Shown: in pieces, positions 8,558 to 25,658 of the stretch
Numbering within the stretch: position 1 is the stretch's first letter
Layout: each line of letters starts with the position of its first letter
Virus record (IMG/VR): IMGVR_UViG_3300010285_000002
DNA length: 41,407 bases
DNA from: a virus
Direction: 5' to 3' (one strand)
Position numbers and translations under genes: made by a program
Notes under the pieces: generated by a model
Database searches by the model: none
Seen by the model: the letters and a program-made list of their open reading frames with translations, nothing else
What the model was told of the DNA's origin: nothing

Positions 8558-8626
8558 ATATCTACATCCTATGTGGCCGGTTCATCAAGAGCCGGCTAAA
8601 CTATTTATGCAAAAAGAGGTGATACC

Positions 8627-9016
8627 ATGGCGAGCAAGCCAAAGAAACCATGTTGTAAAGTAGGTTGCCGCAACTTGACAACAGAACGATATTGTAGCAA
8701 CCATCAACATATAGCAGAGCAGGAGAACAAGGATAGATACAAATACTACGACCAATATCAGAGAGACAAGAAGACCGCAAAGTTCTATAACTCTGCGGAG
8801 TGGAAGAGTCTAAAGCAGCAAGCGTTAATACGTGACAAAGGATTGTGTCAAGACTGTTTGGAAAATCAAAAGATAACAATGGCTACAGAAGTAGACCACA
8901 TCATACCAATCAAAGAGAGATGGGATCTGAGGTTAGTATTGGGCAACCTTAGGTCCCTTTGTCATAGGTGCCACATGAGAAAGACAGCGCGAGACAGAAA
9001 AAAGTACCAAAGTTAG
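8627..9016 (+). CDS. HNH endonuclease (packaging-associated)
   Basis: Motifs CQDC...EVDHIIPI...LCHRCHMRKT. It lies immediately upstream of the terminase genes. Confidence 0.85.
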   Translation: MASKPKKPCCKVGCRNLTTERYCSNHQHIAEQENKDRYKYYDQYQRDKKTAKFYNSAEWKSLKQQALIRDKGLCQDCLENQKITMATEVDHIIPIKERWDLRLVLGNLRSLCHRCHMRKTARDRKKYQS

Positions 9017-9140
9017 AACGACTGTTCGATTATAGGGGTAGGGGGTAGGCAAAATGTTTGAAAGGGCGGCGTAGATACCGCGTGCCCCCTCGCGTGTGAA
9101 AAAATGTCCCCGAAAAATTTCCAAAAAGGAGGTGGCGACG

Positions 9141-9626
9141 TTGGGGAATCCTGTAATTGATTTTTCAAAAATGCAAGTAGGTCAAAAAGGCGGAGGAAAA
9201 CATTGGACAAAAAAGGAAGTCGAAGCGCGTCAACGCGCCGCCGCCAAAATGACAAGGGCAAAAAAGAAAAACCTCAAGATGCCAGATTGGCTCGACGAAG
9301 AGGCTCAAAAAGTCTGGAAGAAAACTCTTAGGGATATGAAAGACTTTGACGTGCTTGACAAAGTTGACGAAGACGTGCTTGCTGCATACTGCGATGCGGT
9401 AGCAAGACACAAAGAATTAGCTGCAATTATCCGCGAGAGAGGATACACAACGTTTAATTCCACAGGATCAGAGGTTGAAGCTCCATGGGTGAAGACGCAT
9501 CAAAGCTACACTAGATTGATAATCCAGTGTAGCGATAAACTTGGCCTGAATGCAAATTCAAGGGCACGACTAGCACGTAAAATAGCACAAGAGGAGACGG
9601 ATCCAAATGAAGACCTCTTTGATTAA
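9141..9626 (+). CDS. terS: terminase small subunit (P27-like)
   Basis: Position, size and helical content fit TerS. TTG 9141 lies 7 nt after AAGGAGGTG. The track start at 9096 has no RBS. Confidence 0.7.
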   Translation: MGNPVIDFSKMQVGQKGGGKHWTKKEVEARQRAAAKMTRAKKKNLKMPDWLDEEAQKVWKKTLRDMKDFDVLDKVDEDVLAAYCDAVARHKELAAIIRERGYTTFNSTGSEVEAPWVKTHQSYTRLIIQCSDKLGLNANSRARLARKIAQEETDPNEDLFD

Positions 9627-11418
9627 TCTTCCAAAGGATTTGAGCGAGCTGCATCCAACACACAGGTATGCGGTTGAAATCGTGGCAGGGCTTAGACCGT
9701 CGAATGAATTAGAATGGCTAGCGTGTGAACGTCACTTGAAAGATTTGCAGCGTCAAGGAACCGAGGAATTCCCGTACGTGTTCGATGAAACACGAGCAAA
9801 CAGGATATTTGACTGGTTTGAACGTTGTTGTAAACATGTTAGAGGTCCGTTTAGCGGTCAATATATACAACTACTACCGTTTCAAAAATTCGACCTCGGA
9901 TGTGTGTTTGGCTGGGTACATAAAGATACTGGAAAACGGAGGTTCAACCGTTCATACAACGAAAGAGCAAGAGGAAACGTAAAATCAACTGAAATGTCAG
10001 GTATTGCACTATACGGTATGTGCGGAGACTGTGTATACCCACCATACGACCCAAGCCAAAAGCGGTATGAGGATATGCCGGAAGTTGAATGCGCTGCTGT
10101 AGACAGGCAACAAGCAAAACGTGTTTGGGGCGATGCTCAAAAGATGGGGGAAGGAAGCCCGGATATCGCTAAAAGGTTAAGAATCAAGCGCACATATATC
10201 GAGCACGGCACTAGAGGAGGATGGCTTAGACCGCTATCCAAGGACACCAAAAACAAGGATTCCGGCGCGCCTTGTATGGTTATCATAGATGAGTATCACG
10301 CTCATCCAACTTCTGAAATTGTGGATGTGCTTTATTCCGGTTTTGGTAAGAGATTGCAGTCTCTGATGATGATAATTACGACAGCTGGAAAAAACGCAGA
10401 GAATAACCCTTGCAAAAAAGAGCGCGACATGCTCGAAAAAATGCTTCGCGGTGAAATACCTATGATCGAGACCTATTTTGCGATGATCCGGACGCTAGAC
10501 AAGGAGGACGATCCGCACGACGAAAGTAAATGGGTTAAGGCAAATCCAATTTTGCAAGAAGATAACGAGTACAGTAGAGAGTTACTCAAACAGATACGGA
10601 CTGAACATGACGAGGCGTTCAATTCCGGTGACCCCGCGAAGATTCGCGAATGGCTTACTAAGCGCGTAAATCTATGGCAGGATGACAGCGAAGAAAAATA
10701 CATGGCTGGTATTATGGGCAAATGGAAAGCTTTGGCCGTGTCACGAAAAGAGTTTTTGGAACTGATTCGCGGACTCGAAGGTTGGGTAGGCGTCGATATG
10801 TCTAAGAGAATAGACCTTACTGCCGACGCACATGTATTTTGGCTCCCTGACGGACGATTAGCCGTAACCGCCCATGGATTTATGCCGGAAGAAACCGCAA
10901 CAAGGCACGAACATACTGACCGAGTACCTTATAAGCAATGGGCGAAAGACGGTTGGTGCACACTTACACCAGGCGCAGTAACGGACTATAAATATATAAC
11001 AAATCATCTTGACGAATTTGAGTTTGATAACGGAGTTAAAATTCTTGAAGAATGCTACGACCCGTACAATGCAACTCATTTTATGTTAGAGAGAGCTGCT
11101 GCTGGGAAAGAGGTAATTGAAATATCACAAAACTTCTTAACACTATCTGAACCAACGAAATATTTCCGTGAACTCGTATTACAGGGCAAAGTTGTTCACG
11201 ACGGCAACCCGCTTTTGACATGGTGCCTATCAAATGCGGTTGAAATCACAGATAGCAACGGGAATATCAAACTGAGCAAAAAACACAAGGACGACAGTCA
11301 ACGCATTGACCTTGCAGCTGCAGTAATTAACGCGCTGGTGAGAGCCATGTTGAATGAAGCCCCGCCGGACGTAAGCGAATTTGCCGAAGAAGACTTTCTA
11401 AATAAATTATGGGGGTGA
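9607..11418 (+). CDS. terL: terminase large subunit
   Basis: 603 aa. ATPase and nuclease layout with the IIDEYHAH Walker B-like motif. Lies downstream of TerS with an overlap. Confidence 0.95.
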   Translation: MKTSLINLPKDLSELHPTHRYAVEIVAGLRPSNELEWLACERHLKDLQRQGTEEFPYVFDETRANRIFDWFERCCKHVRGPFSGQYIQLLPFQKFDLGCVFGWVHKDTGKRRFNRSYNERARGNVKSTEMSGIALYGMCGDCVYPPYDPSQKRYEDMPEVECAAVDRQQAKRVWGDAQKMGEGSPDIAKRLRIKRTYIEHGTRGGWLRPLSKDTKNKDSGAPCMVIIDEYHAHPTSEIVDVLYSGFGKRLQSLMMIITTAGKNAENNPCKKERDMLEKMLRGEIPMIETYFAMIRTLDKEDDPHDESKWVKANPILQEDNEYSRELLKQIRTEHDEAFNSGDPAKIREWLTKRVNLWQDDSEEKYMAGIMGKWKALAVSRKEFLELIRGLEGWVGVDMSKRIDLTADAHVFWLPDGRLAVTAHGFMPEETATRHEHTDRVPYKQWAKDGWCTLTPGAVTDYKYITNHLDEFEFDNGVKILEECYDPYNATHFMLERAAAGKEVIEISQNFLTLSEPTKYFRELVLQGKVVHDGNPLLTWCLSNAVEITDSNGNIKLSKKHKDDSQRIDLAAAVINALVRAMLNEAPPDVSEFAEEDFLNKLWG

Positions 11419-11422
11419 TACG

Positions 11423-12229
11423 TTGAGTAAAAACTACGCACCGAAATCCGGAAACATTGTAGGTCAAGACGGCCAAATACAAAATATCGTCGATTTATTG
11501 GGCGGCGGAACGCCTGTGTCAGACGAAGTGCACGACATTCGACGCTATGCGCCCATGGGCGGACTTGTAATTGGTAGCGACGGCAAGGCCTACGATTTGA
11601 TTAAGCTACTAAAAAATATTACCAATGGTGAGATTTCATATGATTTAGAAGAAAGATTATCATTAATTGAAGATGATCTTGATATAATTAAAGCAGCCAT
11701 TGGCAATGGAAATTATGAAATAATGAGCTATATTAATGTTGTAGCTCCTCCACCTGAAAGTAATAAAAAATTTGCATATTGGATAGATCAAGATAATAAT
11801 ATTCTTTGCTACACTCCTTTATATGGATTTTACAGCATAAGAGATGTTCAATTAACTCCTGTTTATGTAGATGAATCAGTAGAAGTTGAAAGAAAAGGAA
11901 ATAGTATGGTAACTGTTGTATCTCCACTTGATAAGAAAATAATTTTTATTGTTGAAAGATGTATTCCACCTGAAAATAGTATAGTAACACATGGTTTGAT
12001 TGTAACCAATAACGCTTCAATAGGAACTAATGAAAATGCTTTTGTAATTGGAGGTTCTGGAGTTTTGAAAGCAGAATCATCAACTAAGAGTGGAGTTGGT
12101 ATATACAAGGTTACTAAAACCGCAAATTCTGGAGAGACATGGTACGCTAGAGGGTTTATAACTCATCAAGATAGCAACAATAATATCGAGACCGTATATA
12201 GTTCAATAGTTAGTGGTACAGCACTATAA
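11423..12229 (+). CDS. fibre/decoration-like protein A, whose N-terminal module is paralogous to the next gene
   Basis: N-terminus has two copies of a roughly 24-aa motif (YAPKSGNIVGQDGQIQNIVDLL and YAPMGGLVIGSDGKAYDLIKLL). TTG start follows a GGGGGTGA RBS. Confidence 0.65.
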   Translation: MSKNYAPKSGNIVGQDGQIQNIVDLLGGGTPVSDEVHDIRRYAPMGGLVIGSDGKAYDLIKLLKNITNGEISYDLEERLSLIEDDLDIIKAAIGNGNYEIMSYINVVAPPPESNKKFAYWIDQDNNILCYTPLYGFYSIRDVQLTPVYVDESVEVERKGNSMVTVVSPLDKKIIFIVERCIPPENSIVTHGLIVTNNASIGTNENAFVIGGSGVLKAESSTKSGVGIYKVTKTANSGETWYARGFITHQDSNNNIETVYSSIVSGTAL

Positions 12230-12253
12230 ACAGTATACCAGGAGGTATTACTA

Positions 12254-13651
12254 ATGAATTACAACCCAATGACCGGACGTATAATTAATGAAAATGGTGA
12301 AATTCAAAATATTGTTGATCTATTAGGTGGAAGTAATCCAATATCTGACGCGACATATAACATTAAACATTATGCCCCAAAAAGCGGTAATGTAATTGGT
12401 GAAGATGGAAAAGTATATAACTTAGTTCAATTAATAAAAAATTTTAGTGGCGGCGGAGGTGGAGGTGGAGGCGGAGGCGGCCCTGTAGCTTGGAGTGACG
12501 TACAGGGCAAACCGTCAACATACCCGCCTACCGAACACAGTCATGATGCCAGGTACTATACAAAGCAGGATATTGACAATGCCGGATACTTGCTTGCTCA
12601 ACCAGATGGTGAGACGGTGCATGTACAAGGCGGCGAATTGAAAGCTAAAACTCTGACGGGGCTACAGTTGGGTGTATCTCAACTCAATGCTTGGCTGGCC
12701 GGTACAGAGGGCAATATCCAAAGCCAATTCAACGACATATACATGACACTCGCCGCACTTTCTTCAGGTATGAGATACAGAGGCAAATTTGAATCAAAAT
12801 CAGGCCTCGACAGCGTCACAATTAAAGACAATGGCGATTTGGCCGTTGTGCTTTCCGACGAGACACGCGGCGGAGCACGCAGCCTGTATGTCTACAACGA
12901 TTCACTCGGCATATGGGACTTCGTCGGCGCGTTCGAGTTTTCCGACGCTTTTACGTCGCTCACCGACACCCCCAATGCCTATGACAGCGGCAAACTGCTG
13001 CGCTCCGGCACCAATGGCCTGTACTTTGACACCATCAAATGGGATGAGATCGACGGTCGCCCCGAACCCTCCAAAGCCGCTATAGAGCAAGCTGTTAACA
13101 AGGCGCACACGCACGCTAAGACGGATGCAGAGATATCAAATGCGGTTGAACTGGCGCATCCACATCCCAACATAGCCGCACTCAACCGCATCGGCATCGA
13201 CGCGCAAGGGCGCATAACCGTTGATGGTATGCCCTATATTCTACAACGGAGTTTTTTGGTTGCTCGATTTAGCAATCACTACACCACTTCGACGGACGGA
13301 GAGATCTTGAAGTTCGACCAAAAAGTGGCTGGGGACATTCCGCTCAATACTTCGACCGGAAAATTCACACTCCAGGCGGGTAAGCGATACCTCGTCATCG
13401 CAAATTTCAACGGGGATACACAGCGCGGTTACGCAGCAGTCCTGTATCTGAGATCAAACGGTGTTGATAACGTGAACGACAACTCGCGAACATCGCTTTA
13501 TAACAGACGCTATGAAGGCGACGAAATAACGTCTGGAAACATCGTAACCGTCGTTATCCCGACCGCCACACAAGAATACTGGGTGTACTGCAACCGATCT
13601 GGATACAGGTTTTTCTCGAGCGGAACTAACCTGACGGTGATTGAGTTTTGA
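12254..13651 (+). CDS. fibre-like protein B: paralogous N-module, Gly11 linker, KPSTYPPTEHSH fibre motif and a C1q/TNF-like C-terminal head
   Basis: N-terminus has GRIINENGEIQNIVDLL and YAPKSGNVIGEDGKVYNLVQLI. Eleven Gly codons lie at 12449-12481. The C-terminus FLVARFS...TGKFTLQAGKRYLV resembles a C1q-type jelly-roll. Confidence 0.7.
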   Translation: MNYNPMTGRIINENGEIQNIVDLLGGSNPISDATYNIKHYAPKSGNVIGEDGKVYNLVQLIKNFSGGGGGGGGGGGPVAWSDVQGKPSTYPPTEHSHDARYYTKQDIDNAGYLLAQPDGETVHVQGGELKAKTLTGLQLGVSQLNAWLAGTEGNIQSQFNDIYMTLAALSSGMRYRGKFESKSGLDSVTIKDNGDLAVVLSDETRGGARSLYVYNDSLGIWDFVGAFEFSDAFTSLTDTPNAYDSGKLLRSGTNGLYFDTIKWDEIDGRPEPSKAAIEQAVNKAHTHAKTDAEISNAVELAHPHPNIAALNRIGIDAQGRITVDGMPYILQRSFLVARFSNHYTTSTDGEILKFDQKVAGDIPLNTSTGKFTLQAGKRYLVIANFNGDTQRGYAAVLYLRSNGVDNVNDNSRTSLYNRRYEGDEITSGNIVTVVIPTATQEYWVYCNRSGYRFFSSGTNLTVIEF

Positions 13652-13677
13652 GCCCAGTTAATCGCTGGGCTTTTTTT
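13651..13677 (+). terminator. intrinsic terminator between fibre gene B and portal
   Basis: Stem AGCCCAG/CTGGGCT with a 7-nt loop, followed by a T-run. Confidence 0.75.
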
Positions 13678-15024
13678 ATGACGAAAGGCGGTGAGAAATT
13701 GGGAATTAGAGATTACGTCAGGCGATGGCTCGGAATTGACGAGAAACGCGAAACGTTAGAGCTGAACAAAGACGACCGCAGACTTGCAGAAATCCTCGGC
13801 CTTGATATAGATGGTGTAGATGTGAAAGGTAAGGGGGCTCTTAAGGTCGATACGGTATATGCTTGCATACGTATTCGATCCGAATCTGTGGCGAAACTGC
13901 CGCTCAAGGTATACCAAGAAGATGAATACGGAGTCCGAAAACAAAATAAGCACCATGTAGCTCGACTACTAAAACTCAGGCCGAACCCGTTTATGAGTGC
14001 TTACGACTTCTGGAAGACTCTTGAGACTCAAAATTGCCTGTACGGCAATGCTTTCGCAAATATCGAGTTCGATCGGCGAACCGGAAAACCTATTGGATTA
14101 TGGCCGATAGACAGCACTAAGGTTACAGTCTACGTTGATGAGGATACCGGAATGTCGAATATAATGCAACCGAAATCGAAGCTATGGTACGTGGTAGACC
14201 TCGGCCACGAGAAACGAAAGGTTTCGGAAGATGAAATGCTGCATTTTCGCGGAGGCTTGACACTCAACGGTATAGTAGGACTTTCACCGATTGACCAACT
14301 TAAGGCAACCGTTGAAAATCAAGGGCAATCCAATGAATTCATAAACAAATTCTATAAGCAAGGGTTGCAAGTCAAAGGACTTGTGCAATATGTAGGAGAT
14401 TTGAACGAAGATGCCAAGCGCACATTCCGTGAGAAATTTGAATCAATGTCGAGCGGGCTGAACAACGCCCACAGAATTGCACTTATGCCGATTGGATACA
14501 AGTTTGAGCCGATAGCATTGACCTTGCAAGATGCACAGTTTCTAGAAAACGCGCAATTGACCATCCGGCAAATCGCGGCAGCATTCGGTATCAAAATGCA
14601 CCAATTGAACGATTTGAGCCGGGCAACCTATAACAACACTACAGAGCAGCAAAAAGAATTCTACACTGACACGCTACAACCTATTCTCACAGGATATGAA
14701 CAGGAGTTGACCTATAAGTTGTTCCTCGATGATGAGATCGAGAACGGGTACTTCACCAGGTTCAACGCTGACGCGATTCTTCGAGCTGATATAAAGTCGA
14801 GGTACGAGGCATATCGCTTGGCAATTCAAGCAGGATTTAAAACGCCAAATGAAGTTCGAGCACTAGAAGAAGATCCGCCGAAGGAAGGCGGAGATCAACT
14901 CATTGTCAACGGAAATATGGTACCTTTGACAGAAGTGGGTGCAGCTTACCGCAAAGGAGGTGAAAAAAGTGGGCAAAGCAAACAAGATGACGGTACAGAA
15001 GGAAATCAGAGCGCTGCCGACTAA
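13678..15024 (+). CDS. portal protein (HK97 family)
   Basis: About 450 aa in portal position. The start is uncertain: ATG 13678, or TTG 13699 after a GGCGGTGAG RBS. The track start at 13648 lies inside the terminator. Confidence 0.9.
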   Translation: MTKGGEKLGIRDYVRRWLGIDEKRETLELNKDDRRLAEILGLDIDGVDVKGKGALKVDTVYACIRIRSESVAKLPLKVYQEDEYGVRKQNKHHVARLLKLRPNPFMSAYDFWKTLETQNCLYGNAFANIEFDRRTGKPIGLWPIDSTKVTVYVDEDTGMSNIMQPKSKLWYVVDLGHEKRKVSEDEMLHFRGGLTLNGIVGLSPIDQLKATVENQGQSNEFINKFYKQGLQVKGLVQYVGDLNEDAKRTFREKFESMSSGLNNAHRIALMPIGYKFEPIALTLQDAQFLENAQLTIRQIAAAFGIKMHQLNDLSRATYNNTTEQQKEFYTDTLQPILTGYEQELTYKLFLDDEIENGYFTRFNADAILRADIKSRYEAYRLAIQAGFKTPNEVRALEEDPPKEGGDQLIVNGNMVPLTEVGAAYRKGGEKSGQSKQDDGTEGNQSAAD

Positions 15025-15595
15025 AATCGAGATCCGTGCTGATGAAAATGAAACCGGCAAGCGCACAATTACGGGCGCAATCAAATACGAGACTGATTCG
15101 GCTGACTTCATCGATTGGTACGGCGACACGTGGATTGAACAGATTGCTTCTGGAGCTTTTGCAGAAAGCTTGAAAGTTCGCAATGTAGTAGGACTCTGGA
15201 GTCACGATACTGCGCAAGTATTAGGTAGTACAAAATCAGGGACTTTGAGAATAACAGACAGCGATAAAGAGCTTAGTTTTGAACTCGATATTCCAGACAC
15301 ACAAGCAGGTAACGACGCTTGGACACTCATCAAGCGCGGCGACGTGGACGGAGTATCGTTTGGAATGAAGGTAACAAAAGATAAGTGGTCAACAGAAGAG
15401 CGCGACGGGAAGAAAATATACAAAAGAACCATATTGAGTGCAGAATTGTACGAAATCAGCCCGGTAGCGTTTCCAGCATATCCAGCAAATGAAGTATCTG
15501 CCCGCGGACTTGAGGAATTCAAAGCTTCCGAGCAGCGAGCAGCAGATCAATATGAAAAAGAAAAGTTACTTATTGAACTCGATCTTTACGGTTGA
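14969..15595 (+). CDS. prohead protease (HK97/S78 family)
   Basis: Lies between portal and capsid. Motifs GLWSHD and DGVSFG. GTG 14969 follows an AAAGGAGGTG RBS. Confidence 0.85.
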   Translation: MGKANKMTVQKEIRALPTKIEIRADENETGKRTITGAIKYETDSADFIDWYGDTWIEQIASGAFAESLKVRNVVGLWSHDTAQVLGSTKSGTLRITDSDKELSFELDIPDTQAGNDAWTLIKRGDVDGVSFGMKVTKDKWSTEERDGKKIYKRTILSAELYEISPVAFPAYPANEVSARGLEEFKASEQRAADQYEKEKLLIELDLYG

Positions 15596-15644
15596 GTTTA
15601 ATTTTTTAAAAATTCTAAAAAAAAATCTAGGAGAGTGAATAAAT

Positions 15645-16838
15645 ATGACAAAGGAATTAAGATCACTACTTGCAAAACTTGAAACAGCGAAAACAGAGGC
15701 GCGATCCTTGTTAGCGGAAGACAAGGTAACAGAAGCAAAAGAAAAGATGGACGAAGTTCGTACACTCCAATCAAAAATTGACGCTATGAGAGAACTGGAA
15801 GAAATAGAAGCTCGCGGACTTGGCGGCACCGAATTGAACGATGACGGTAACGTTGCAGAGCGCGATATGCAGGAACTAGAGGCAGAATATCGCAGCATAT
15901 TCTTGCAAGGTATTCGAAGAAGACCGATATCATCGGAGCAGCGTTCCATCATCCGTGAATACGAACGCAGGGCAGTTATGAACGAAGGTAACACCAACCC
16001 AGCTATTTCTGATGGAGACGTTGGTATTATTGTTCCCCAAGACATACAAACACAAATCAATACACTTATGCGTCAGTGGAACGACCTAAGCCAGTACGTA
16101 ACAATTGAGAACGTAACAACTCTTTCAGGTTCTAGAGTATTAGAAACTGACGCGGACATGACACCGTTCCAAGTAGTAGACGAATACGGACAAATTCAGG
16201 AGACTGATAATCCGAAGTTCACAAGCATTAGCTACAAACTTAAGAAGCGTGCTGGATATCTACCTCTTACAAACGAGCTATTGTCAGACAACGATGCAAA
16301 TTTGCTCAGCTACGTGAACAATTGGATTGCAAAAAAGGCAGCGCATACAAGAAATACTCAAATCATATCACTTCTCAACACTTTAACGCCGCAGACATTA
16401 GCTGATCTCAAGGCGATTAATAAGGTGCTCAATGTCGAACTCGACCCGGCTATAAGCCAAACAGCAGTTATACTAACCAATCAAGATGGATGGGATTGGC
16501 TCGATAATCAAGTTGACGGAAATGGACGCCCAATTCTACAAGATGATTTCACACAACCGGGCAGAAAGATGTATAAAGGTCGTCCTATTGTTGTCGTATC
16601 AAATCGCCATCTGCCGAGCGATGCAACCAAAGCACTAGCACCACTCATCATTGGTAACCTCAAACAGTTCATGGTGCTATTCAATCGCAAATTCTTCGAA
16701 CTATCTTCTACTAAAGAAGGCGGCGACGCATGGAGACGCGATACCACAGAATTAAGAACCATCATGCGTGACGACTACGTGAAATGGGACGCCACTGCCG
16801 CTGTGTACGGACAGCTCGATATCTCACCTACACCATAA
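15645..16838 (+). CDS. major capsid protein (HK97 fold) with N-terminal coiled-coil delta domain
   Basis: 397 aa. Charged helical N-terminus. Lies after the protease with a strong RBS. Confidence 0.9.
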   Translation: MTKELRSLLAKLETAKTEARSLLAEDKVTEAKEKMDEVRTLQSKIDAMRELEEIEARGLGGTELNDDGNVAERDMQELEAEYRSIFLQGIRRRPISSEQRSIIREYERRAVMNEGNTNPAISDGDVGIIVPQDIQTQINTLMRQWNDLSQYVTIENVTTLSGSRVLETDADMTPFQVVDEYGQIQETDNPKFTSISYKLKKRAGYLPLTNELLSDNDANLLSYVNNWIAKKAAHTRNTQIISLLNTLTPQTLADLKAINKVLNVELDPAISQTAVILTNQDGWDWLDNQVDGNGRPILQDDFTQPGRKMYKGRPIVVVSNRHLPSDATKALAPLIIGNLKQFMVLFNRKFFELSSTKEGGDAWRRDTTELRTIMRDDYVKWDATAAVYGQLDISPTP

Positions 16839-16843
16839 TATAT

Positions 16844-16862
16844 GGGCGGCTAAAAACCGCCC
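16844..16862 (+). terminator. weak hairpin after the capsid gene (possible partial terminator)
   Basis: Stem GGGCGG/CCGCCC followed by a poor T-tract. Confidence 0.3.
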
Positions 16863-16884
16863 TAATCTATTTGGAGGTAACAAC

Positions 16885-17064
16885 ATGGCAAAAGTGATCA
16901 AAGTTTTTAGGGAGAGGCAACACAACTATAAACGTTATGAAATAGGAGACGACTACCCCGAAAACGACGAAAAGCGCGTAGCGTATTTAGTCGGGCAAGG
17001 TTTCTTAGAAAAACCTAAGTCTAAGAGCAAGAAAGGTGCTGATAAGGATGGTACTGACACTTGA
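16885..17064 (+). CDS. small head-module protein (59 aa, MAKVIKVFRERQH...), below the track cutoff
   Basis: ATG follows a TTGGAGGT RBS. The ORF fills the capsid-connector gap and overlaps the next gene. Confidence 0.55.
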   Translation: MAKVIKVFRERQHNYKRYEIGDDYPENDEKRVAYLVGQGFLEKPKSKSKKGADKDGTDT

Positions 17065-17338
17065 AGAAGCCAAAACATGGCTAAGAATTGACAGCGACGA
17101 AGAGGACAGTATACTAGAAATGCTAATCGGGGCAGCGGAAACATATCTTCATAACGCAACCGGGAATAGATTCAGCTCAGAGAATCAACTTGCAAAGATG
17201 TATTGTCTAGTCCTCTGCGCTGATTGGTATGAAAACCGAGATTTAATAGGGCAACAGCCATCCGAAAAAATAAGGTTCACGTGTCAATCTATTATGGCAC
17301 AATTGCAGCATGCTTACGGCGGTGATGAAGATGGCTAA
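17048..17338 (+). CDS. head-tail connector (gp6-like)
   Basis: LTLEEAKTWLRIDSDEEDSILEMLIGAAETYL is the typical signature. Confidence 0.8.
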   Translation: MVLTLEEAKTWLRIDSDEEDSILEMLIGAAETYLHNATGNRFSSENQLAKMYCLVLCADWYENRDLIGQQPSEKIRFTCQSIMAQLQHAYGGDEDG

Positions 17339-17669
17339 GTTATTGGTGAACAAGTTGAATACCAGAATTACTTTTTTGCGAAGAGAATCAACCAGAGATG
17401 AATACGGAGAACCTTATGACGAATGGACTCCAGTAAAAACCGTATGGGCAAGCAAATTTGACCTCATGGGTACAGATTTTTATGCGGCGCAGACCTCGGA
17501 TACAAAAGTTGAAGTGAAGTTCAGTTGCAGGTACACAAAAGACGTATCGAAAGATATGCGCATTCAATGTGGCAACGAAATATACGATATTGTCGGCGTG
17601 CCAATTGACGTGGACAACAAACACAGGGAATTGCTTATATATGCCAGGCTGGTGAATGCGTATGACTAG
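17331..17669 (+). CDS. head closure / head-tail adaptor (SPP1 gp16-like)
   Basis: LNTRITFLRR...DEYGE..W pattern. Its ATG overlaps the previous stop codon. Confidence 0.75.
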   Translation: MAKLLVNKLNTRITFLRRESTRDEYGEPYDEWTPVKTVWASKFDLMGTDFYAAQTSDTKVEVKFSCRYTKDVSKDMRIQCGNEIYDIVGVPIDVDNKHRELLIYARLVNAYD

Positions 17670-18150
17670 AGTATATTTCAAAGTAGAAGGAATGAAAGAA
17701 CTACAAAAAAGCCTAAAAAAACTCGGGAAAGTACCTCAAAAGCATGTAACTTCAACATCTAAAAAGGCTATGAATATTGTATTACGACAAGCGAAAAAAG
17801 ATGCACCTGAGGAAACTGGGGCATTAAAACAGGGTATGATATTACATGGTGAAAAAAGCCGGTACAAAGCTAAAAAAGTGTATCAAGTTATATTTGACCC
17901 AAGCATGAATGATGTGTTTCAAAAGCCGGTTAAAAATGTTGGCGAATCTGGCAGCCCTCATGCAAAGAATCCTGCTTACTATCCTTTTTCTCAAGAATAC
18001 GGCTTTTTTGCTAGGGACGGAAAGTATATTCCTGGATTTAGGTTTTTGCATAATAGTCTAGCCAACAATGCACAAAAGATGGAAAAGAGCATTGTTGATA
18101 CGATGAAAAAGAAAATCGACCAAGAAATAAGAAAGGTGGGACTGAATTGA
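17656..18150 (+). CDS. HK97 gp10-family tail-completion protein
   Basis: Position and the motif AKKDAPEETGALKQG. Confidence 0.7.
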   Translation: MRMTRVYFKVEGMKELQKSLKKLGKVPQKHVTSTSKKAMNIVLRQAKKDAPEETGALKQGMILHGEKSRYKAKKVYQVIFDPSMNDVFQKPVKNVGESGSPHAKNPAYYPFSQEYGFFARDGKYIPGFRFLHNSLANNAQKMEKSIVDTMKKKIDQEIRKVGLN

Positions 18151-18729: not shown

Positions 18730-19155
18730 ATGGCAGGAGAAGCAAGAAAAGCAACAAGAGCGTTGGGAACAGTGTTAATGAAAGGAACTCAAAAAATAGG
18801 CGGACTTACTTCTATTGGTGGTATTGAAATCACAGCTGATACAATGGACGTCACCACATTGGATAGTGACGGCGGCTACAGAGAATTCATTGGTTCATTC
18901 AAGGACGGAGGCGAGGTACCAATAGAAGGATATTTCAGGCCAGAGGATGCCGGACAAATAGCAATGCAAACATCTCTAGACGAAGGGCAACCGGAAGACT
19001 ATACGATTGAATTTCCTACTTCACCGAAAGCAGCATGGAGCTTCAAAGGGGTTGTAACAGGCTTCAAGGTTGGAGATGTTGACGTGGACGGCACTGTTAA
19101 TTTCGGTGCTACAATTAAAGTGTCCGGAAAGCCAGTATTAGAAATCGAAGAATAA
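18730..19155 (+). CDS. major tail protein (phi13/TP901-like)
   Basis: 141 aa in conserved position before the chaperone pair. Confidence 0.8.
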   Translation: MAGEARKATRALGTVLMKGTQKIGGLTSIGGIEITADTMDVTTLDSDGGYREFIGSFKDGGEVPIEGYFRPEDAGQIAMQTSLDEGQPEDYTIEFPTSPKAAWSFKGVVTGFKVGDVDVDGTVNFGATIKVSGKPVLEIEE

Positions 19156-19851: not shown

Positions 19852-22531
19852 AAGAAGTAACTTTATCGTGCGCGGCGGTGCGGATTTTTCAGGAATTAAC
19901 AAAGCACTAAATCAAACTCAAGCGAAGTTAACTACGTTTCAGTCTAATATAAGAAAATCCATGAAAGCTATAGGCATATCTTTGAGCAGTTTGGCAGTAG
20001 GAAAACTAATTAAAGATTCAACAGCTATGGCTATGACAGTTGAATCATCTATGGACAACATCAGGAGAAACATGGGCAAAGCATCAAGCGCATTCGAGAA
20101 GTTCGCGGACACCCAAGCAAAAGCTTTAGGGATGGCCCGTAAAGATGCTTATGAATATGGTTCGGTATTCTCAAATCTACTATCAAGTTTTTCTAACGGG
20201 ACACAAGAAACTGCAGAAAAAACTCAAGAGTTAATGAAAGCTGCTGCTATAATCGCAAGCAAAACAGGCAGAACTTATGAAGATGTTGCTAATCGTATTA
20301 GGTCCGGTATGTTGGGCTCCACAGAAGCAATCGAGGATCTCGGTGTGTACACCAACATATCAATGATTGAGTCAACAGAGGCGTTCAAGAAATTTGCAGG
20401 CAACAAGTCATGGAATCAGTTAGATTTTAGAGTACAGCAACAAATTAGGCTTGCAGCTATATTAGAGCAAGCGTACTCAAGGTATGGTGATGCACTTGCA
20501 AATACTACTCAGACCAAACAGGCCATGTTCCTGGCAAGTCTTGAAAATATCAAGCTTAACCTCGGTCAAGCATTTTTGTCAATTTACAATGTTATACTTC
20601 CAGCTTTGAATGCTTTAGCTTCAAAACTCGAAGTAGTAACAGCACGACTTGCAGTGTTCACACAAGCGATTTTTGGAAAAGCAAACTCAGTGCAGGTAAC
20701 AGAAAAACAAACCGAGGCTTTTAAGGATCAAAGCAATGCTATTGCCGATGTGGGTGACGCTGTAGAAGAAGCAGGAAAGAAAGCAAAGAAGGCGCTGGCA
20801 CCGTTTGACGAATTGAACGTATTGACTTCTCAAACAGGCGGATCAGGATCAGCAGCTTCAACCAGTACACAATCAATCGTTGATATATCGAACACAGAAC
20901 AAGAAATAGGCAAAATAGAAACTGTGTTCGACAAGGTTAGGGCAAAGTTTGCCGAACTAAGCGAAATTTTTAAAGAGGGTTTTGCAATTGGTTTCGGTAC
21001 ATCAAACTTTGATAACATAGCAAACAGTCTCAACAACATCAAAAAATCCCTGAAAAGTATTTTTGCTAGTTCAGAAGTCACTAAAGCTGCTGACAACTGG
21101 GCCAATAAAGTTGTACTATCTCTTGGCAAAATAACCGGATCTATTGCGAGCATAGGAAGCACAATAGCAGAATTTTTTGTAGGTAGTATAGACAAATACT
21201 TTTCACAGAATGCTGACTTTCTAAGAAGCAAGATAGTATCATTGCTAGATATATCGGCAAGAAGAGCAGAAATATACTCAAAGTATACAACTGCTCTAGC
21301 TGATATATATAGTGTATTCAGAAGTGACCAAGCAAAACAAATTGGAGCTGACCTAATCGGTATTTTTGCAAATAGCTTTATGTCAGTTGCGGAATTAAGC
21401 TGGGCATTCGGTACCGATATCATCGAGGCTATTACAAGGCCGATAACCGAAAACAAAGACGCTATTAAGAAAGCCTTAGAAAATACACTTGCGCCAGTAC
21501 GAATTCTAGTTGGAGGTATAAAAGACTTCCTTGACAAAACATTTGCAGCGATTAAAAACTCCTATGATAAATATATAAGTCCAGCACTTGAAAATTTTGG
21601 TTCTGGATTTAGCAAGGCGTTTAAGGGCGTGCTTGATGGATATAATCAGTATTTAGCTCCAACGATTGATAACATATCAAGAAAGTTTGTGGAGCTAGTT
21701 GATACTTATTTATCGCCGTTAATTAGGAAAATACTTGATTTTATAGGATCACTCATATATGAAGTGTCAAGGCTTTGGGATTTCCTATCGCCGTTCGTTG
21801 GATGGCTGGCATCTAACTTCTTTGAAAAGATATCAAATAGCTTAAAATTAATGTGGAGTCTATTTGAAACAGTATTTAAGCAGATAATTAATATTTTAAA
21901 TACTACTATAGGTGTTCTGCAGGGATTACTTGATTTTATCGCTGGTGTATTTACAGGCGATTGGGGTAGAGCTTGGAATGGCATCAAGCAAGTTTTTACT
22001 TCGATTTTAGACGGTATGAAGAACTCAATTACGAATTTCATTGACTTTATAGGCAAAGCTTTTGCTGGTATTGGAGATACAATTAAAATTACTATCAAAG
22101 GTGCTATAAATGGAGTTATTGTATTATTTAATAAATTTATTAATCATGTGAATAATAAACTCAAATTCTCTTGGGATGGTCTAAAAATTGCTGGCAAAAC
22201 TATATTCGAGGCCGGCAGTGTTCAGTTAGCAAAAATTCCTACAATCCCTCAACTTGCCCGGGGAGGTATAGTTGACAGCCCGACACTCGCAATGATAGGC
22301 GAAGCAGGAAAAGAGGCAGTTGTGCCTCTCGAAAATACTAGCTTTGTTACGACACTTGCAAGTGCTATAGCGAATGAAATATCTAAGAAATTGGGAAGCA
22401 ACACATCAAATAATAGCAATAATACTGGCGATGTAGTGCTGAAAATAGGAGACGTTGAGTTTGGACGAATAGCCATAAAAGCTATTAATGAGGTACAACG
22501 TAGTGCAGGGGCAACCCTGTTAATTGTCTAA
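19841..22531 (+). CDS. tail tape measure protein
   Basis: 896 aa, helical and low complexity, in the conserved position. Confidence 0.9.
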   Translation: MANRRSNFIVRGGADFSGINKALNQTQAKLTTFQSNIRKSMKAIGISLSSLAVGKLIKDSTAMAMTVESSMDNIRRNMGKASSAFEKFADTQAKALGMARKDAYEYGSVFSNLLSSFSNGTQETAEKTQELMKAAAIIASKTGRTYEDVANRIRSGMLGSTEAIEDLGVYTNISMIESTEAFKKFAGNKSWNQLDFRVQQQIRLAAILEQAYSRYGDALANTTQTKQAMFLASLENIKLNLGQAFLSIYNVILPALNALASKLEVVTARLAVFTQAIFGKANSVQVTEKQTEAFKDQSNAIADVGDAVEEAGKKAKKALAPFDELNVLTSQTGGSGSAASTSTQSIVDISNTEQEIGKIETVFDKVRAKFAELSEIFKEGFAIGFGTSNFDNIANSLNNIKKSLKSIFASSEVTKAADNWANKVVLSLGKITGSIASIGSTIAEFFVGSIDKYFSQNADFLRSKIVSLLDISARRAEIYSKYTTALADIYSVFRSDQAKQIGADLIGIFANSFMSVAELSWAFGTDIIEAITRPITENKDAIKKALENTLAPVRILVGGIKDFLDKTFAAIKNSYDKYISPALENFGSGFSKAFKGVLDGYNQYLAPTIDNISRKFVELVDTYLSPLIRKILDFIGSLIYEVSRLWDFLSPFVGWLASNFFEKISNSLKLMWSLFETVFKQIINILNTTIGVLQGLLDFIAGVFTGDWGRAWNGIKQVFTSILDGMKNSITNFIDFIGKAFAGIGDTIKITIKGAINGVIVLFNKFINHVNNKLKFSWDGLKIAGKTIFEAGSVQLAKIPTIPQLARGGIVDSPTLAMIGEAGKEAVVPLENTSFVTTLASAIANEISKKLGSNTSNNSNNTGDVVLKIGDVEFGRIAIKAINEVQRSAGATLLIV

Positions 22532-22544
22532 GGAAGTGATATAC

Positions 22545-22898
22545 ATGCTAAAAATTAATGGAAATGATGTAGTTACACCGTCTGAATTCTCGGTTACTAT
22601 ACTCGACTTAGACAATGGTGAAAGCTCGGTGAGAACAGCAGACGGTACGCTTAACAGGGATAGGATAGCAGTGAAAAGGCAACTTGATATAACTTGGCCA
22701 GTTATGAATTGGTTAGACACATCAACTATTTTACAAGCTATGTCGAGTGTATTTTTTACTGTGAATTATCCTGATCCGTTTACAGGTTACTACGAAACAA
22801 AAACATTCTATGTCGGGAATAGACCTGTTCCAGTTGCTATTGTGAAGGGTAATGAAATATATTGGGGCGGTCTCAAAGTCACTCTAATAGAAAGATAG
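22545..22898 (+). CDS. small distal tail component (Dit-like position)
   Basis: Immediately follows the tape measure gene. ATG 22545 follows an AAGGAAGTGA RBS. Confidence 0.5.
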   Translation: MLKINGNDVVTPSEFSVTILDLDNGESSVRTADGTLNRDRIAVKRQLDITWPVMNWLDTSTILQAMSSVFFTVNYPDPFTGYYETKTFYVGNRPVPVAIVKGNEIYWGGLKVTLIER

Positions 22899-22908
22899 GT
22901 GATGCAAT

Positions 22909-24876
22909 ATGTATCCTACTTCACAAAAATACAAAGACTATATCAACTCTCCAAATCGACAATTTGAAGTGCAGGCAATCATCAATGGGGTTGTATATGG
23001 TAGCGATGAAGTGGTGGAATTCTCCATTGACGATATGCTTACTGGTAGCGATGAATTGACACTTGGTACAGTTATTCCAGCGAAATTAAATATCAAAATA
23101 AAGACTACAAGCTCAATACCAACTAATGCCAAAATAGTGCCTGAACTAAGATTGAATGGTCCTGATGGGTATACTGAATGGATACCTATGGGTGAATTTT
23201 ATATTGACTCAAGGCAGTATCAAAACGGGATCTGGACTTTCAGTTGCGTTGACAAACTTATTACAACCGAGCAGCCTTATGTATCAAATTTGACTTATCC
23301 GGTAAGCATGAGCGACGTATTCGAAGAAATATTAGATATCTTGGACATTGAATCTGATGTAGCAATTAATCCCACATTCCAGATACCCTACAAGGATGAA
23401 AGCATAAGTATACGGGATATGTTGTCGTGCATAGCCTCGGCTCATGGGGCTAATGTGAAACTGAACAGAGAAGGGGAACTGATATTTATTCCTATTTCAC
23501 CAAGTTTGGAACCAGTTGCTACAGTCACAGCATCCAGCTATATCCGAGGCGAGCAAACAAATCCCCAAAAGGTGTATACAAAACTCGAAGTAGTACATAA
23601 TGCGGAAGGCGAAACTTTAACACGAGGCACCGGAACAGAAGATAACACTTTGAAGTTTGAAAACCGCTTCATGTTCATTGAACAGAATCAGCTTAACAAT
23701 GCTTTTTCAATAATCGATGGCTTTTCATATGTGCCATACACCATGACTTGGACTGGTAGACCTGATTTGGACGTCGGGGACACTATTAAGATTGTATTGT
23801 TAGACAGTACCGAAATAACAAGCATTATAGCAGTCAACAAAATCAGTTTCAAAGGTGGATTACTTCAACAGAGCTCCGCACCTTCTAAGAGCGAACAGCA
23901 AAGCGAGTTCAGGTTCACCGGAACAATTTCAAAACAATTGGCTCAAAAAATCACAAAAGATGCTGTATACAATGGAGTTTCATTTGGACCGACGTACGGA
24001 TTGAAAGTTGAACGAAGTGATGGAAAAGTTCGTGTTCTTGCAAATGCGACAAAAGGAATACTCATACAGAAAAATATTGGTGGAGACAATTGGGAAGATG
24101 TCATATTCCTCGATACAGAAGGCAACGGCAACTTCGTGGGAAAAATCATTTCTTCTCAATTCATAGGTGGTTCAATCGATATCGGAGACGGACAATTCAC
24201 AGTAGATAGCGAGGGTAATGTATTTTCTAATTCTATGACAGTTACAGGCGGAACTATTGCTATCACAAGGGTAGACAACAAAGCACGTGTAACTATAAGT
24301 GGTGCGGACGGTTTCAAAATACAGAAGGGCGACGGTACCGGGGAAGTTTGGGAAGATGTAGTTTACATCGATAACGAAGGCAATGCCAATTTCACCGGGA
24401 TAATCACAGGCGGGATGATAAGAACTGCAGCAGAAGGAGCAAGAATCGAGATTAGCAACAACCAACTGAGGCATTATAATACATCTGGAAGACTTCAAGG
24501 TTTTTGTAGCAATACTATGGACAATCGTTATGGGGACGTTGAAATTTATGATGGAGGAGAATTAATTTTTCGTATTTACGTTGATATAAGTAACGGAGCT
24601 TGGTTAAGACAAGAAAATGGGAAGCCTCTATATATAGGAAGAACTGGTCATGATACTTACTGCTATGGGAATTGGGTTGGAGTTGTACAACACTTAACTC
24701 AATCAGAAGCAGCTGCAAAAACCGATTGGATTTTAAATCAGCTAGTGGAAATAACAGATGAAGAACTGCCTTTAATAACAGATGACCTTAACGAATCATC
24801 AACTATTGAACAGATAGTAGAAAAAATTAATGATATAATACGAGCGCTCGATGGTTGGATGCTTAGGAGAGAGTAA
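22909..24876 (+). CDS. tail-associated protein (Tal / prophage tail endopeptidase-like) with repeated C-terminal modules
   Basis: 655 aa after the Dit position. Repeated WEDV(I/V)..D.EGN.NF.G.I units. Confidence 0.7.
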   Translation: MYPTSQKYKDYINSPNRQFEVQAIINGVVYGSDEVVEFSIDDMLTGSDELTLGTVIPAKLNIKIKTTSSIPTNAKIVPELRLNGPDGYTEWIPMGEFYIDSRQYQNGIWTFSCVDKLITTEQPYVSNLTYPVSMSDVFEEILDILDIESDVAINPTFQIPYKDESISIRDMLSCIASAHGANVKLNREGELIFIPISPSLEPVATVTASSYIRGEQTNPQKVYTKLEVVHNAEGETLTRGTGTEDNTLKFENRFMFIEQNQLNNAFSIIDGFSYVPYTMTWTGRPDLDVGDTIKIVLLDSTEITSIIAVNKISFKGGLLQQSSAPSKSEQQSEFRFTGTISKQLAQKITKDAVYNGVSFGPTYGLKVERSDGKVRVLANATKGILIQKNIGGDNWEDVIFLDTEGNGNFVGKIISSQFIGGSIDIGDGQFTVDSEGNVFSNSMTVTGGTIAITRVDNKARVTISGADGFKIQKGDGTGEVWEDVVYIDNEGNANFTGIITGGMIRTAAEGARIEISNNQLRHYNTSGRLQGFCSNTMDNRYGDVEIYDGGELIFRIYVDISNGAWLRQENGKPLYIGRTGHDTYCYGNWVGVVQHLTQSEAAAKTDWILNQLVEITDEELPLITDDLNESSTIEQIVEKINDIIRALDGWMLRRE

Positions 24877-24877
24877 T

Positions 24878-25633
24878 ATGTTGCAAAAAATAAGATTTAA
24901 AAAATATACATCTTCGGGATTTGTACCAGCAAGGTTAAAAAAGTTTGGATTTGGTACAGATAAAGAAATGAATATAGATGGATTGAAAGCAGAATATTTG
25001 TTTAAAAATAGCTTAGAAGATACAAGTGGGAATGAGTATCATTTGACGCCCATAGGGAATGTTATGTTTAAAAAGGGGTTAGGTGGTTATTGTTTGTATT
25101 ATGAAACACAACAAGTTGGGGCTATTGTACACTCTTCAGAATTAACATCAATCTTTATTGGACGAAAGCCTTATACAGTTTCATTTTGGATTATGCCTAC
25201 TATTTTTAGTCACGAAAATGCTGAAATAATCAAAGTATCTAATGCTTCTGGTGAGGCATCAACCATAAGCATATTTATATTATCAAATGGTATTATACAA
25301 TTTAGAAGGCAACTATTGTGGTCATATAGCGACCTATATTCTACAGAACCATTAAAACTTAATAAATGGCAACATTTTTTATGTGAATACAATGGAACAA
25401 CAATGAAAATTTATATAAATAATAAATTATGTGGTGAATTAGAAAGCACATTATCTGTAACACAGTATGGGATTTTATGGTTTGGGTTAGTTGCTGGGAC
25501 ATATGTTTCTTCACAACCTGGCTATTATGATTCTCTTCGTATTTTTGATAGAATATTAACTGAAAAAGAGAAATTTGAACTTTATAATGAATTTAATTTA
25601 GCTCCTATTAGATTATTTAAATTTATGGTATAA
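24878..25633 (+). CDS. LamG/concanavalin-like lectin-domain protein (putative receptor-binding component)
   Basis: Motifs TVSFWI and SLRIFDRILTEKE are typical of Laminin_G_3-type domains. ATG 24878 follows AGGAGAGAG. Confidence 0.6.
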   Translation: MLQKIRFKKYTSSGFVPARLKKFGFGTDKEMNIDGLKAEYLFKNSLEDTSGNEYHLTPIGNVMFKKGLGGYCLYYETQQVGAIVHSSELTSIFIGRKPYTVSFWIMPTIFSHENAEIIKVSNASGEASTISIFILSNGIIQFRRQLLWSYSDLYSTEPLKLNKWQHFLCEYNGTTMKIYINNKLCGELESTLSVTQYGILWFGLVAGTYVSSQPGYYDSLRIFDRILTEKEKFELYNEFNLAPIRLFKFMV

Positions 25634-25634
25634 T
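25606..25634 (+). promoter_or_regulatory. possible extended -10 promoter (TGgTATAAT) for the secreted-protein moron
   Basis: tggtataat lies at 25626-25634. The -35 (tattag) is poor. Confidence 0.35.
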
Positions 25635-25658
25635 ATAGGCGAGGGAGGCGATGAATGT

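Follow-up and report, generated by a model that had tools for sequence, protein, structure and literature searches.

Two candidate accessory adhesins sharing an N-terminal module, encoded between the TerL and portal genes of a temperate siphophage and probably arisen by cassette insertion

Genes A and B between TerL and portal

The 41.4-kb stretch of virus DNA analyzed here (IMG/VR record IMGVR_UViG_3300010285_000002; "the window" denotes this whole stretch) has the look of a complete temperate siphophage genome, in which exactly two open reading frames (ORFs), genes A and B, separate the genes for TerL and the portal protein. Gene A (11423-12229, + strand) has a TTG start and encodes 268 amino acids (aa), comprising an N-terminal module referred to as the anchor (residues 1 to ~65), a helix (residues 74-93) and a head (residues ~100-268). 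Gene B (12254-13651, + strand) encodes 465 aa, comprising a second anchor of donor origin, a poly-Gly linker, a fibre body and a C1q/tumour necrosis factor (TNF)-like tip. The presence of two genes at this site was pointed out in a preliminary description of the sequence, and is borne out by these ORFs. The reading favoured here, which we consider fairly likely, is that A and B are accessory adhesins of the virion which share an N-terminal module and arose by insertion; the site of attachment on the particle is a separate question, considered further below.

The N-termini of A and B are 55% identical over 64 aa (E 8e-22), and this region is itself an internal duplication (repeat 1 of A against repeat 2 of B, 58% identity, E 1e-7) of a ~24-aa motif, Y-x-P-x-(S/G)-G-x-(I/V)-(I/V)-G-x-D-G-x3-(N/D)-(I/L)-(V/I)-x-L-L. 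Two motif copies per N-terminus had been reported previously, and a regular-expression search of the six frames of the window returned these four, at 11450, 11561, 12275 and 12386, all in A or B (the same expression gave one false match across all other fetched loci). The anchor of A, A_N (11423-11599, + strand), is taken as the ancestral, resident copy with normal GC content, and the anchor of B, B_N (12254-12448, + strand), as a copy imported with the cassette described below. Beyond the anchors, no significant similarity was found between the C-termini of A and B, in agreement with their earlier description as unrelated.

The head of A (11720-12226, + strand) probably consists of a divergent InlB-B-repeat-like unit followed by an immunoglobulin (Ig)-like β-sandwich. 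Its AlphaFold2 (AF2) model has a predicted local distance difference test (pLDDT) score mostly >90 over residues ~100-268 (all AF2 structures discussed here are monomer predictions). An exhaustive HMMER search with residues ~90-266 of A gave 832 relatives (E <1e-3; best identities 36-49%), nearly all forming the very C-terminal end of proteins that reach 6207 aa. Domains detected in the ten relatives that were scanned include Flg_new and Flg_new_2 (Listeria-Bacteroides/InlB B-repeats), LRR_5 (BspA-type) and CBM domains, and signal-peptide-like N-termini are visible in several relatives. In P0054 (624-684) and P0059 (110-170), Flg_new_2 spans the start of the stretch aligned with A, while A itself has no Pfam match at E up to 1. 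In these homologues the divergent InlB B-repeat corresponds to the initial ~65 residues of the head, and the remaining ~110 are modelled as the Ig-like sandwich. Foldseek matches for the sandwich are weak and of E-set/Ig-like type (E ~1e-3, target TM-score up to 0.6), the best in PDB being ApaG, the sulfite oxidase C-domain and a DUF3823 protein, and a pattern scan of IMG/VR for relatives of the head found none. Because its InlB-B-repeat-like and Ig-like pair has its kin at the C-termini of secreted bacterial proteins, A is a globular surface-protein domain pair on a phage anchor and not a fibre, and the earlier view of both genes as fibre-like does not hold for A.

A stand-alone homologue of the A head (49% identity, without an anchor) is also present between TerL and portal in another locus (L005, 2933-3559), in an unrelated SPP1-like head module, with a Prp-type protease gene as its neighbour. 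Such cargo seems to have landed repeatedly in the TerL-portal gap. In SPP1 this gap is a recognized moron slot, in which ORFs 3-5 have been termed morons (PMC6316719).

In gene B, the eleven Gly codons (12449-12481, + strand) and the fibre motif that had been noted are both present. The first Gly codon marks the right recombination junction, and a poly-Gly run follows the N-terminal module in nearly all homologues. The ancestral fibre body (12482-13225, + strand) contains the motif, a helical stretch, a β-domain (residues 175-260) and a second H.H helical region. The motif (KPSTYPPTEHSH in B; general form W..KPS.(Y/F)PP..H.H) occupies residues 79-97, directly after the N-terminal region, and matches two copies in PDB 9d93, 'tail collar fibers gp4' (E 3e-4), an entry for which a literature search found no source paper; H95 and H97 are invariant in 36 homologues. 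The B body was also found behind several other N-terminal modules, always with poly-Gly as the joint; prophages of Lederbergia and Heyndrickxia encode such proteins in their tail-fibre or lysis region.

The tip of B (13226-13648, + strand) was assigned as a C1q/TNF-like jelly-roll by Foldseek searches of PDB and BFVD. The AF2 model of residues ~325-465 (block-mean pLDDT 63-94) is a compact jelly-roll with best matches to C1QL3, C1q, EDA-A1, collagen X NC1 and BclA (E 5e-8 to 1e-6, target TM-score 0.66-0.78), and the BFVD matches include 'C1q domain' phage proteins and tail-fibre receptor-binding proteins. The C1q/TNF-like end previously proposed for B from its residue pattern is therefore matched by the predicted monomer fold. 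The Pfam C1q/TNF profile did not match the tip at E up to 1, and the modelled relationship is one of structure only.

On the left flank, A begins 4 nt past the stop codon of TerL (9607-11418, + strand; Pfam TerL_ATPase 8e-19, TerL_nuclease 9e-49), with its Shine-Dalgarno sequence GGGGGTGA within the last TerL codons. The independent assemblies L002 and L003 also call gene A as 268 aa, and the 59 N-terminal codons of A differ from those of the relative L001 by 26 synonymous and 9 non-synonymous codon differences, with 30 of the 41 base changes at third positions. A and B share a reading frame and are separated by the TAA stop and eight sense codons (12227-12253); the net insertion of 831 bp described below is divisible by three, and hypothetical read-through of the stop would yield an anchor-head-anchor-fibre fusion. 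On the right flank, the longest ORF of the portal gene begins at TTG 13648 and overlaps a hairpin. The portal start is most likely TTG 13699 (gene 13699-15024, + strand; Pfam Phage_portal 7e-104; 441 aa in L002-L004), since this codon and the ribosome-binding site (RBS) ahead of it, AAAGGCGGTGA, have homologous counterparts in L001 and L009.

The hairpin and the T7 run after it (13650-13679, + strand) have the sequence features of an intrinsic terminator: an intergenic, GC-rich stem-loop on the sense strand (stem 13650-13672; 9 bp with 5 G-C pairs, 5-nt loop, -14.5 kcal/mol), followed by a U-tract encoded by seven T. Overall, the terminator scan was not enriched (6 sites vs 7.6 expected), so the case for a terminator comes from the quality and position of this site. 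A homologous hairpin is present in L001 and L009 (AGCCTAG..CTAGGCT), with a compensatory T>C / A>G pair and no T-run, and the comparison indicates that the hairpin is ancestral and the U-tract newly acquired. The terminator placed earlier at 13651-77 is thus real as a hairpin with T7, but judging from these relatives it did not arrive with the cassette. The late operon has another terminator-like hairpin with a T-run (15572-15602), between the putative protease and capsid genes, so that internal hairpins are not unique to the A/B locus.

The interval between fibre gene and portal also differs in another respect. L001 (3305-3590) and L009 (4957-5240) contain here a 68-aa ORF flanked by a 12-nt direct repeat, GAAAGGCGGTGA, which serves as RBS for both this ORF and the portal gene; the corresponding interval of the window (13651-13700) has a single copy of GAAAGGCGGTGA and no 68-aa ORF, consistent with deletion or insertion via the repeat. 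Identity of the 68-aa ORF with the small TerL-portal ORF of the phages Geobacillus NIIg9.7 and Bacillus yong1, the closest relatives in culture, was considered and rejected, as the latter is hydrophobic and unrelated.

Origin of the pair as read from relatives

The two genes form a sharp compositional mosaic. The GC content at third codon positions (GC3) is 0.485 in A at 11423-11620 (66 codons) and 0.148 at 11621-12229, and in B 0.169 at 12254-12448 (65 codons) and 0.556 at 12449-13651, compared with a mean of 0.33 (sd 0.08) over all genes of the window. Among 269 sliding 66-codon windows covering all genes, the head of A contains the minimum (0.106-0.136) and the body of B the maximum (up to 0.73), and the 500-nt windows at 12501-13500 have the highest GC of the whole window. 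The preliminary description had placed an AT-rich stretch at about 11620-12448 and a GC-rich one at 12449-13651, by eye; the sliding windows that it proposed as a check uphold both extremes, and the switch at the Gly linker is confirmed. The left boundary lies at ~11600, as judged from the alignment with L001 and the codon-level junctions described below.

A database search with B gave 42 homologues. One of these, P0001, is identical to B; the next closest, P0002 (63% identity), and P0006, of the same build (52% overall), both have an A-like N-terminus joined through poly-Gly to a B-type body. P0002, encoded on L001, is the sole large gene between a 603-aa TerL and the portal gene, and P0016 on L009 is arranged likewise. 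The anchor A_N is 82-87% identical to the anchors of P0002 and P0006, while B_N is an outlier, with only 60-63% identity to its nearest database anchors; both copies keep all family-invariant positions. The single genes of relatives are uniform in GC3 (L001 0.66/0.65, L009 0.54/0.51, L020 0.40/0.45). This comparison of the TerL-portal junction, which had also been suggested beforehand, thus revealed a single gene of uniform composition with an A-type anchor and a B-type body, and the junction was not free of genes before the event, contrary to what was first supposed.

L001 is colinear with the window, with 76% identity over 9537-11599 (L001 1-2063), 75% nucleotide identity over 12454-13241 (L001 2087-2874) and 72% from 13683 onwards. 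Where the window has 854 bp separating the first two blocks, L001 has 23 bp, and an AT-rich cassette of 849 bp (11600-12448, + strand; GC3 0.15-0.17) is absent from L001. This cassette contains the end of the donor anchor, the helix and head of A, the TAA stop, a 24-nt spacer with the RBS AGGAGG, and a complete second anchor. At the codon level the junctions are YDL|IKLLKNI on the left and KNFS|GGGG, at the first Gly codon, on the right. The two-gene arrangement occurs in near-identical form in assemblies from at least three sequencing runs, which represent one near-clonal lineage (98.8-99.97% identity between assemblies).

As read from these alignments, it is very likely that a foreign AT-rich segment was inserted into a single ancestral fibre gene, as the preliminary description had conjectured for a cassette carrying the C-terminus of A and a new anchor; the single gene of L001 and L009, and the break at 11599/12454, bear out this conjecture. 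A recent in-place duplication is not indicated, given that A_N and B_N have only 60% nucleotide identity. The ancestor would have had one gene in the TerL-portal gap, encoding a doubled anchor, poly-Gly, the fibre body and the C1q-like tip. A single recombination with a phage of a lower-GC pool, in which the conserved anchor end provided homology on both sides, may then have placed the left crossover within the last anchor helix and the right one at the initial Gly codon. The old anchor would now bear a new head (gene A) and the new anchor the old fibre (gene B), with nothing lost. Homology at the anchor end on both sides would require a donor with two successive anchor genes. The similarity to L001 DNA ends at 13241, and from 13242 the tip has no DNA similarity to that of L001; together with the divergent protein variant, this indicates from the alignment that the C1q-like tip variant was also exchanged.

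The anchor family, its attachment site and rival explanations

No match to the anchor was found in Pfam, PHROGs or PDB. More than 100 phage and prophage proteins, whose named hosts are in Bacillales, begin with it; beyond the longer ones, a profile search gave 73 further proteins, mostly of 35-123 aa, in which the motif occurs once (54 proteins) or twice (13 proteins). In the short anchor proteins it is followed by poly-Gly and collagen-like repeats, coiled coils or the H.H motif. At least six unrelated C-termini follow the N-terminal module (the B body, the A head, P0040/41, P0042, P0045 and P0046/47); for the alternative heads of P0040, P0042, P0045 and P0046, family libraries returned no informative match. 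One anchor with many heads, together with a B body that has many N-terminal modules, is the signature of an attachment module. A reduced form occurs in the TerL-portal gap of a Paenibacillus ginsengihumi prophage (L024, 9001-9336; same as L028), where a 111-aa protein consists of an anchor and a short tail whose ending (...FIIQEI) resembles the final strand of the C1q-like tip; the gene has the appearance of a B-type fibre gene shortened by deletion. In this prophage a GDSL-lipase gene is also present among the head-tail connector genes.

A link to the capsid is provided by gp12 of Bacillus phage SPP1, a collagen-like, non-essential trimeric capsid spike that binds a glutamate ring at the hexon center (PMC6813328) and is classed among the decoration proteins to which a role in host adhesion is ascribed (PMC7602432). 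Two proteins, P0269 and P0227, consist of an anchor plus a gp12 homologue, and share with gp12 its collagen region and C-terminal helix (phmmer with gp12: P0269 4.6e-16, P0227 4.3e-15; P0269 60% identical to gp12 over 53 aa, E 1e-18). The gp12-type GXY tract and helix, GFGTEAQYNDII.RLEALE, are present in both and absent from A and B. A relationship of gp12 itself to the anchor was rejected, since hhalign against the anchor profile gave no match, and the link comes from the C-terminal parts of other anchor proteins only. With regard to gene context, a short anchor gene follows the major capsid gene directly in a Lentibacillus prophage (L025) and after one intervening gene in an SPP1-like phage (L026), while in L045 and L047 (IMG/VR) a Phage_scaffold gene and a ~320-aa ORF, taken as the capsid gene in spite of having no Pfam match, lie upstream of the anchor gene. 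Other anchor genes are located between TerL and portal (L001, L009, L024, L033, L034 and L042) or upstream of HNH-TerS. Among the IMG/VR loci L028-L047, short anchor genes (~90-210 aa) are mostly in head or packaging contexts and long ones (390-716 aa) mostly holin-adjacent.

Display of A and B on the virion through their shared anchor is, on these genomic grounds, reasonably probable, and attachment of the anchor to the capsid surface, which would make A and B head fibres or decoration proteins, has about an even chance of being correct. The preliminary description had offered head fibres, decoration proteins or extra receptor-binding proteins, and this suggestion is strengthened by the gene contexts and by the anchor-bearing gp12 homologues. 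In the proposed mechanism, A and B would be made from the late transcript and dock via their anchors on the finished particle, the ~65-aa anchor holding the protein and the poly-Gly or short helix acting as a flexible joint. B would trimerize via its helical stretch and C1q-like tip and bind a cell-surface ligand, while A would be a shorter stalked adhesin, with a domain pair from the repertoire of secreted bacterial surface proteins, and the two together would provide two distinct low-affinity contacts with the cell envelope. With abundant docking sites on the capsid, they may raise reversible adsorption while being non-essential, and the insertion may have been tolerated because, with numerous sites, a newcomer could be added without displacing the resident fibre. 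The hairpin and U-tract would lower rather than abolish transcription into the portal and head genes, attenuation being preferred to a block because the capsid genes lie downstream.

More tentatively, the ~30-aa unit Y-x-P-x-SG-R-(I/V)-IGEDG-x3-N-(I/L)-VDLL, present once or twice and followed by poly-Gly, may be an undescribed portable capsid-docking module of Bacillota phages. If so, a trimer with one copy in each chain would suit a three-fold site, and with two copies in each chain the six units would suit a hexon center. Any head fused to it would be displayed, including collagen spikes, C1q-tipped fibres and captured host surface-protein domains, and the window would present a case in which a second, host-derived adhesin was added to a phage head in one recombination while the first was kept.

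Several observations weigh against virion adhesins docked on the capsid after a single insertion. The presence of A and B in the virion is a prediction from the genes, the anchor is modelled with moderate confidence (AF2 monomer, pLDDT 40-79), and a donor with tandem anchor genes, or with an anchor joined to an A-type head, was not found in the 47 fetched loci. An efficient terminator before the portal and capsid genes is hard to square with a single late transcript. The anchor co-occurs with several unrelated capsid-protein families, so that a single conserved docking site on the capsid is not obvious. At least six anchor genes, of 364-716 aa and mostly from the long class (390-716 aa), adjoin the holin gene (L010, L021 and at least four IMG/VR loci), which is the usual place of tail-fibre genes, and upstream neighbours in the IMG/VR loci include tail-tip families. 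These holin-adjacent genes would fit a different docking site for proteins of the same origin, with the anchor on the tail (tube, distal tail or neck) and A and B as side fibres or accessory receptor-binding proteins that would widen or switch the host range. Docking on the tail would also suit the B bodies with other N-terminal modules in the tail-fibre or lysis regions of Lederbergia and Heyndrickxia, the match of the H.H motif to a 'tail collar fibre' and the BFVD matches to tail-fibre receptor-binding proteins. It is nevertheless judged less likely than docking on the capsid: in the lineage of the window the gene is always within the packaging/head module, short anchor proteins are encoded beside the capsid gene, two anchor proteins are gp12 homologues, and the anchor occurs with differing distal-tail types, DUF6711 in the window and SPP1_Dit in L010, L025 and L026. 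Gene position was rejected as a decisive discriminator between head and tail, as the contexts are split between head/packaging and holin-adjacent.

The remaining alternatives question the virion function, the activity of both genes or the horizontal transfer. Non-virion cargo of the moron type, for example secreted or surface proteins that alter the cell or spore surface of the lysogen, would account for the terminator-like site that ends the pair, for the bacterial surface-protein origin of the A head, and for the location in a gap that is a moron slot in SPP1 (PMC6316719); BclA, a C1q-tipped exosporium protein, is among the structural matches of the B tip, and the hosts of relatives are spore formers. 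Such cargo is quite improbable in view of a gene A that begins 4 nt past TerL with its RBS inside TerL, with no promoter-like site before it (there is only a 10-of-12 match inside B) and no evident signal peptide in A or B, as these sequences are read; moreover, anchor genes lie within late structural operons, and a conserved N-terminal module with a variable head is typical of particle-attached phage proteins. It is also improbable that one of the two genes is a decaying passenger, because the old anchor was orphaned or the donor anchor was unfit. Purifying selection is not measurable in a single near-clonal lineage, and the degraded 111-aa anchor with a tip-strand remnant at the same site of the Paenibacillus prophage provides a precedent, but both ORFs are intact with good RBSs, the A head is modelled with pLDDT >90, and the invariant anchor positions are retained in both copies. 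Finally, fibre-module duplication is common and the remaining genome is AT-rich (mean GC3 0.33), so that the mosaic could in principle reflect duplication of the anchor within the genome followed by local mutational or selective drift. This is hardly credible given a GC3 that falls from 0.49 to 0.15 and rises from 0.17 to 0.56 within few codons, anchors sharing just 60% nucleotide identity, breakpoints that coincide with the loss of homology to L001, and an A head without counterpart in relatives and with hundreds in cellular proteins.

Genome context and comparison with known systems

The host of the phage is most likely a member of Bacillales, a spore-forming bacterium of soil type, as relatives of the studied genes are found in prophages of Sporosarcina, Lederbergia, Heyndrickxia, Paenibacillus, Lentibacillus and Virgibacillus, all spore formers. 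TerL of the window has at most 44% identity to that of any cultured phage, the nearest being Geobacillus and Bacillus siphophages. Megablast and blastn searches of 50,697 deposited phage genomes with the region gave no match, nor did a tblastn search of the same genomes with gene B, while tblastn with gene A gave a single match, an unannotated faecal contig; no cultured phage can therefore serve as a guide. Searches of Pfam (E up to 1) and PHROGs with gene A gave nothing, and neither did a sequence search of PDB. Gene B has nothing above cut-offs in Pfam, and in PHROGs one clear match, phrog_7946 (unknown function, 5e-9), along with weak ones.

Upstream of TerL are an HNH endonuclease-like ORF (8627-9016), assigned by reading of the sequence, and a putative TerS gene (9096-9626), assigned by position. 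Downstream of the portal gene, the putative prohead protease and major capsid genes (the latter 15645-16838) were assigned by colinearity with L001, L002 and L009, whose counterparts match Peptidase_S78 and Phage_capsid. These are followed by genes for the tail tube (18730-19155), a putative tape measure protein of 896 aa (assigned by size and position), a DUF6711 protein taken as the distal tail protein (22524-22898) and a putative tail-tip protein of 655 aa without a Pfam match. The window also encodes an Amidase_3/NAGPA endolysin, an integrase and replication proteins.

Compositional differences are also seen elsewhere in the genome. The packaging/head module (8600-17700) has a GC3 of 0.41-0.50 compared with 0.16-0.40 in the remaining genome; relatives with the same module have a GC of 0.49-0.51, and a GC-richer phage lineage appears to be the source of the module. 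The putative tail-tip gene is followed by two genes (24851-26312), for a Laminin_G_3 (concanavalin-like lectin) protein (GC3 0.19) and a Cu_amine_oxidN1-domain protein (GC3 0.22), that are among the most AT-rich of the genome and may be further recently gained surface-binding modules. The early region (801-2899) encodes a PAPS-reductase-domain protein and a DUF5131 protein, possibly a pair that acts in DNA modification or anti-defence.

That phages exchange modules in their fibre and decoration genes is well established, and C1q-like tips are common in phage fibres. Such exchange is the main way in which phages change adhesion, and the recombination step is rarely so readable as it is here, with junctions within few codons, a recipient state surviving in relatives, and a composition that marks the import. 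What is unusual is that the splitting of one gene into two can be reconstructed cleanly, that the captured domain pair belongs otherwise to cellular proteins, and that an undescribed, widespread anchor is linked to gp12-type decoration proteins; a tblastn search of deposited phage genomes found none of the family among cultured phages. The locus illustrates a route to a second adhesin without loss of the first. If the anchor is a self-sufficient docking module, it would provide a handle for protein display on such phages, and a marker for accessory adhesins in metagenomes.

Among known systems, SPP1 gp12 has the same layout as A and B, in which a flexible or fibrous middle part connects an N-terminal piece to a distal end. 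A and B differ from it in having no collagen repeats or gp12-like sequence, the N-terminus of gp12 (MSKRIPRFLRN) is unrelated to the anchor, and the gp12 gene lies beside the capsid gene rather than between TerL and portal. The head proteins gp8.5 of phi29, Hoc of T4 and pb10 of T5 are dispensable for infectivity and help attachment to the cell surface (PMC7602432). They combine a capsid-binding base with a projecting adhesive part, and A and B, as gene products deduced from DNA, are likened to them: the putative distal Ig-like sandwich of A would resemble Hoc and pb10, and the probable trimeric fibre of B resembles gp8.5. By contrast, the anchor is a doubled ~24-aa hairpin-helix unit, and no sequence or fold match to the β-tulip base of gp8.5 or to Hoc was found.

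C1q-tipped phage fibres share with B its distal domain, the BFVD matches including a tail-fibre receptor-binding protein of Bacillus phage Sam46, and BclA shares with B the order of N-terminal targeting piece, spacer and C1q head. Unlike these proteins, B has neither a Pfam C1q match nor a collagen stalk, and its gene lies in the packaging module. Alternative receptor-binding heads on a shared N-terminal part are also known from the invertible S/S' fibres of Mu and P1 and from the dual tailspikes of K1-5-like phages. As proposed for A and B, these have a conserved particle-binding N-terminus with two distal parts and two specificities, whereas A and B are separate, complete genes, each with its own diverged anchor, which would be expressed together without DNA inversion, and neither of which needs an adaptor protein. 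The closest counterparts of the A head are the secreted Bacillota proteins with Flg_new_2 and a terminal β-sandwich, with which residues ~90-266 of A align; in these proteins the pair ends a long surface protein, whereas in A it is fused to a phage anchor.

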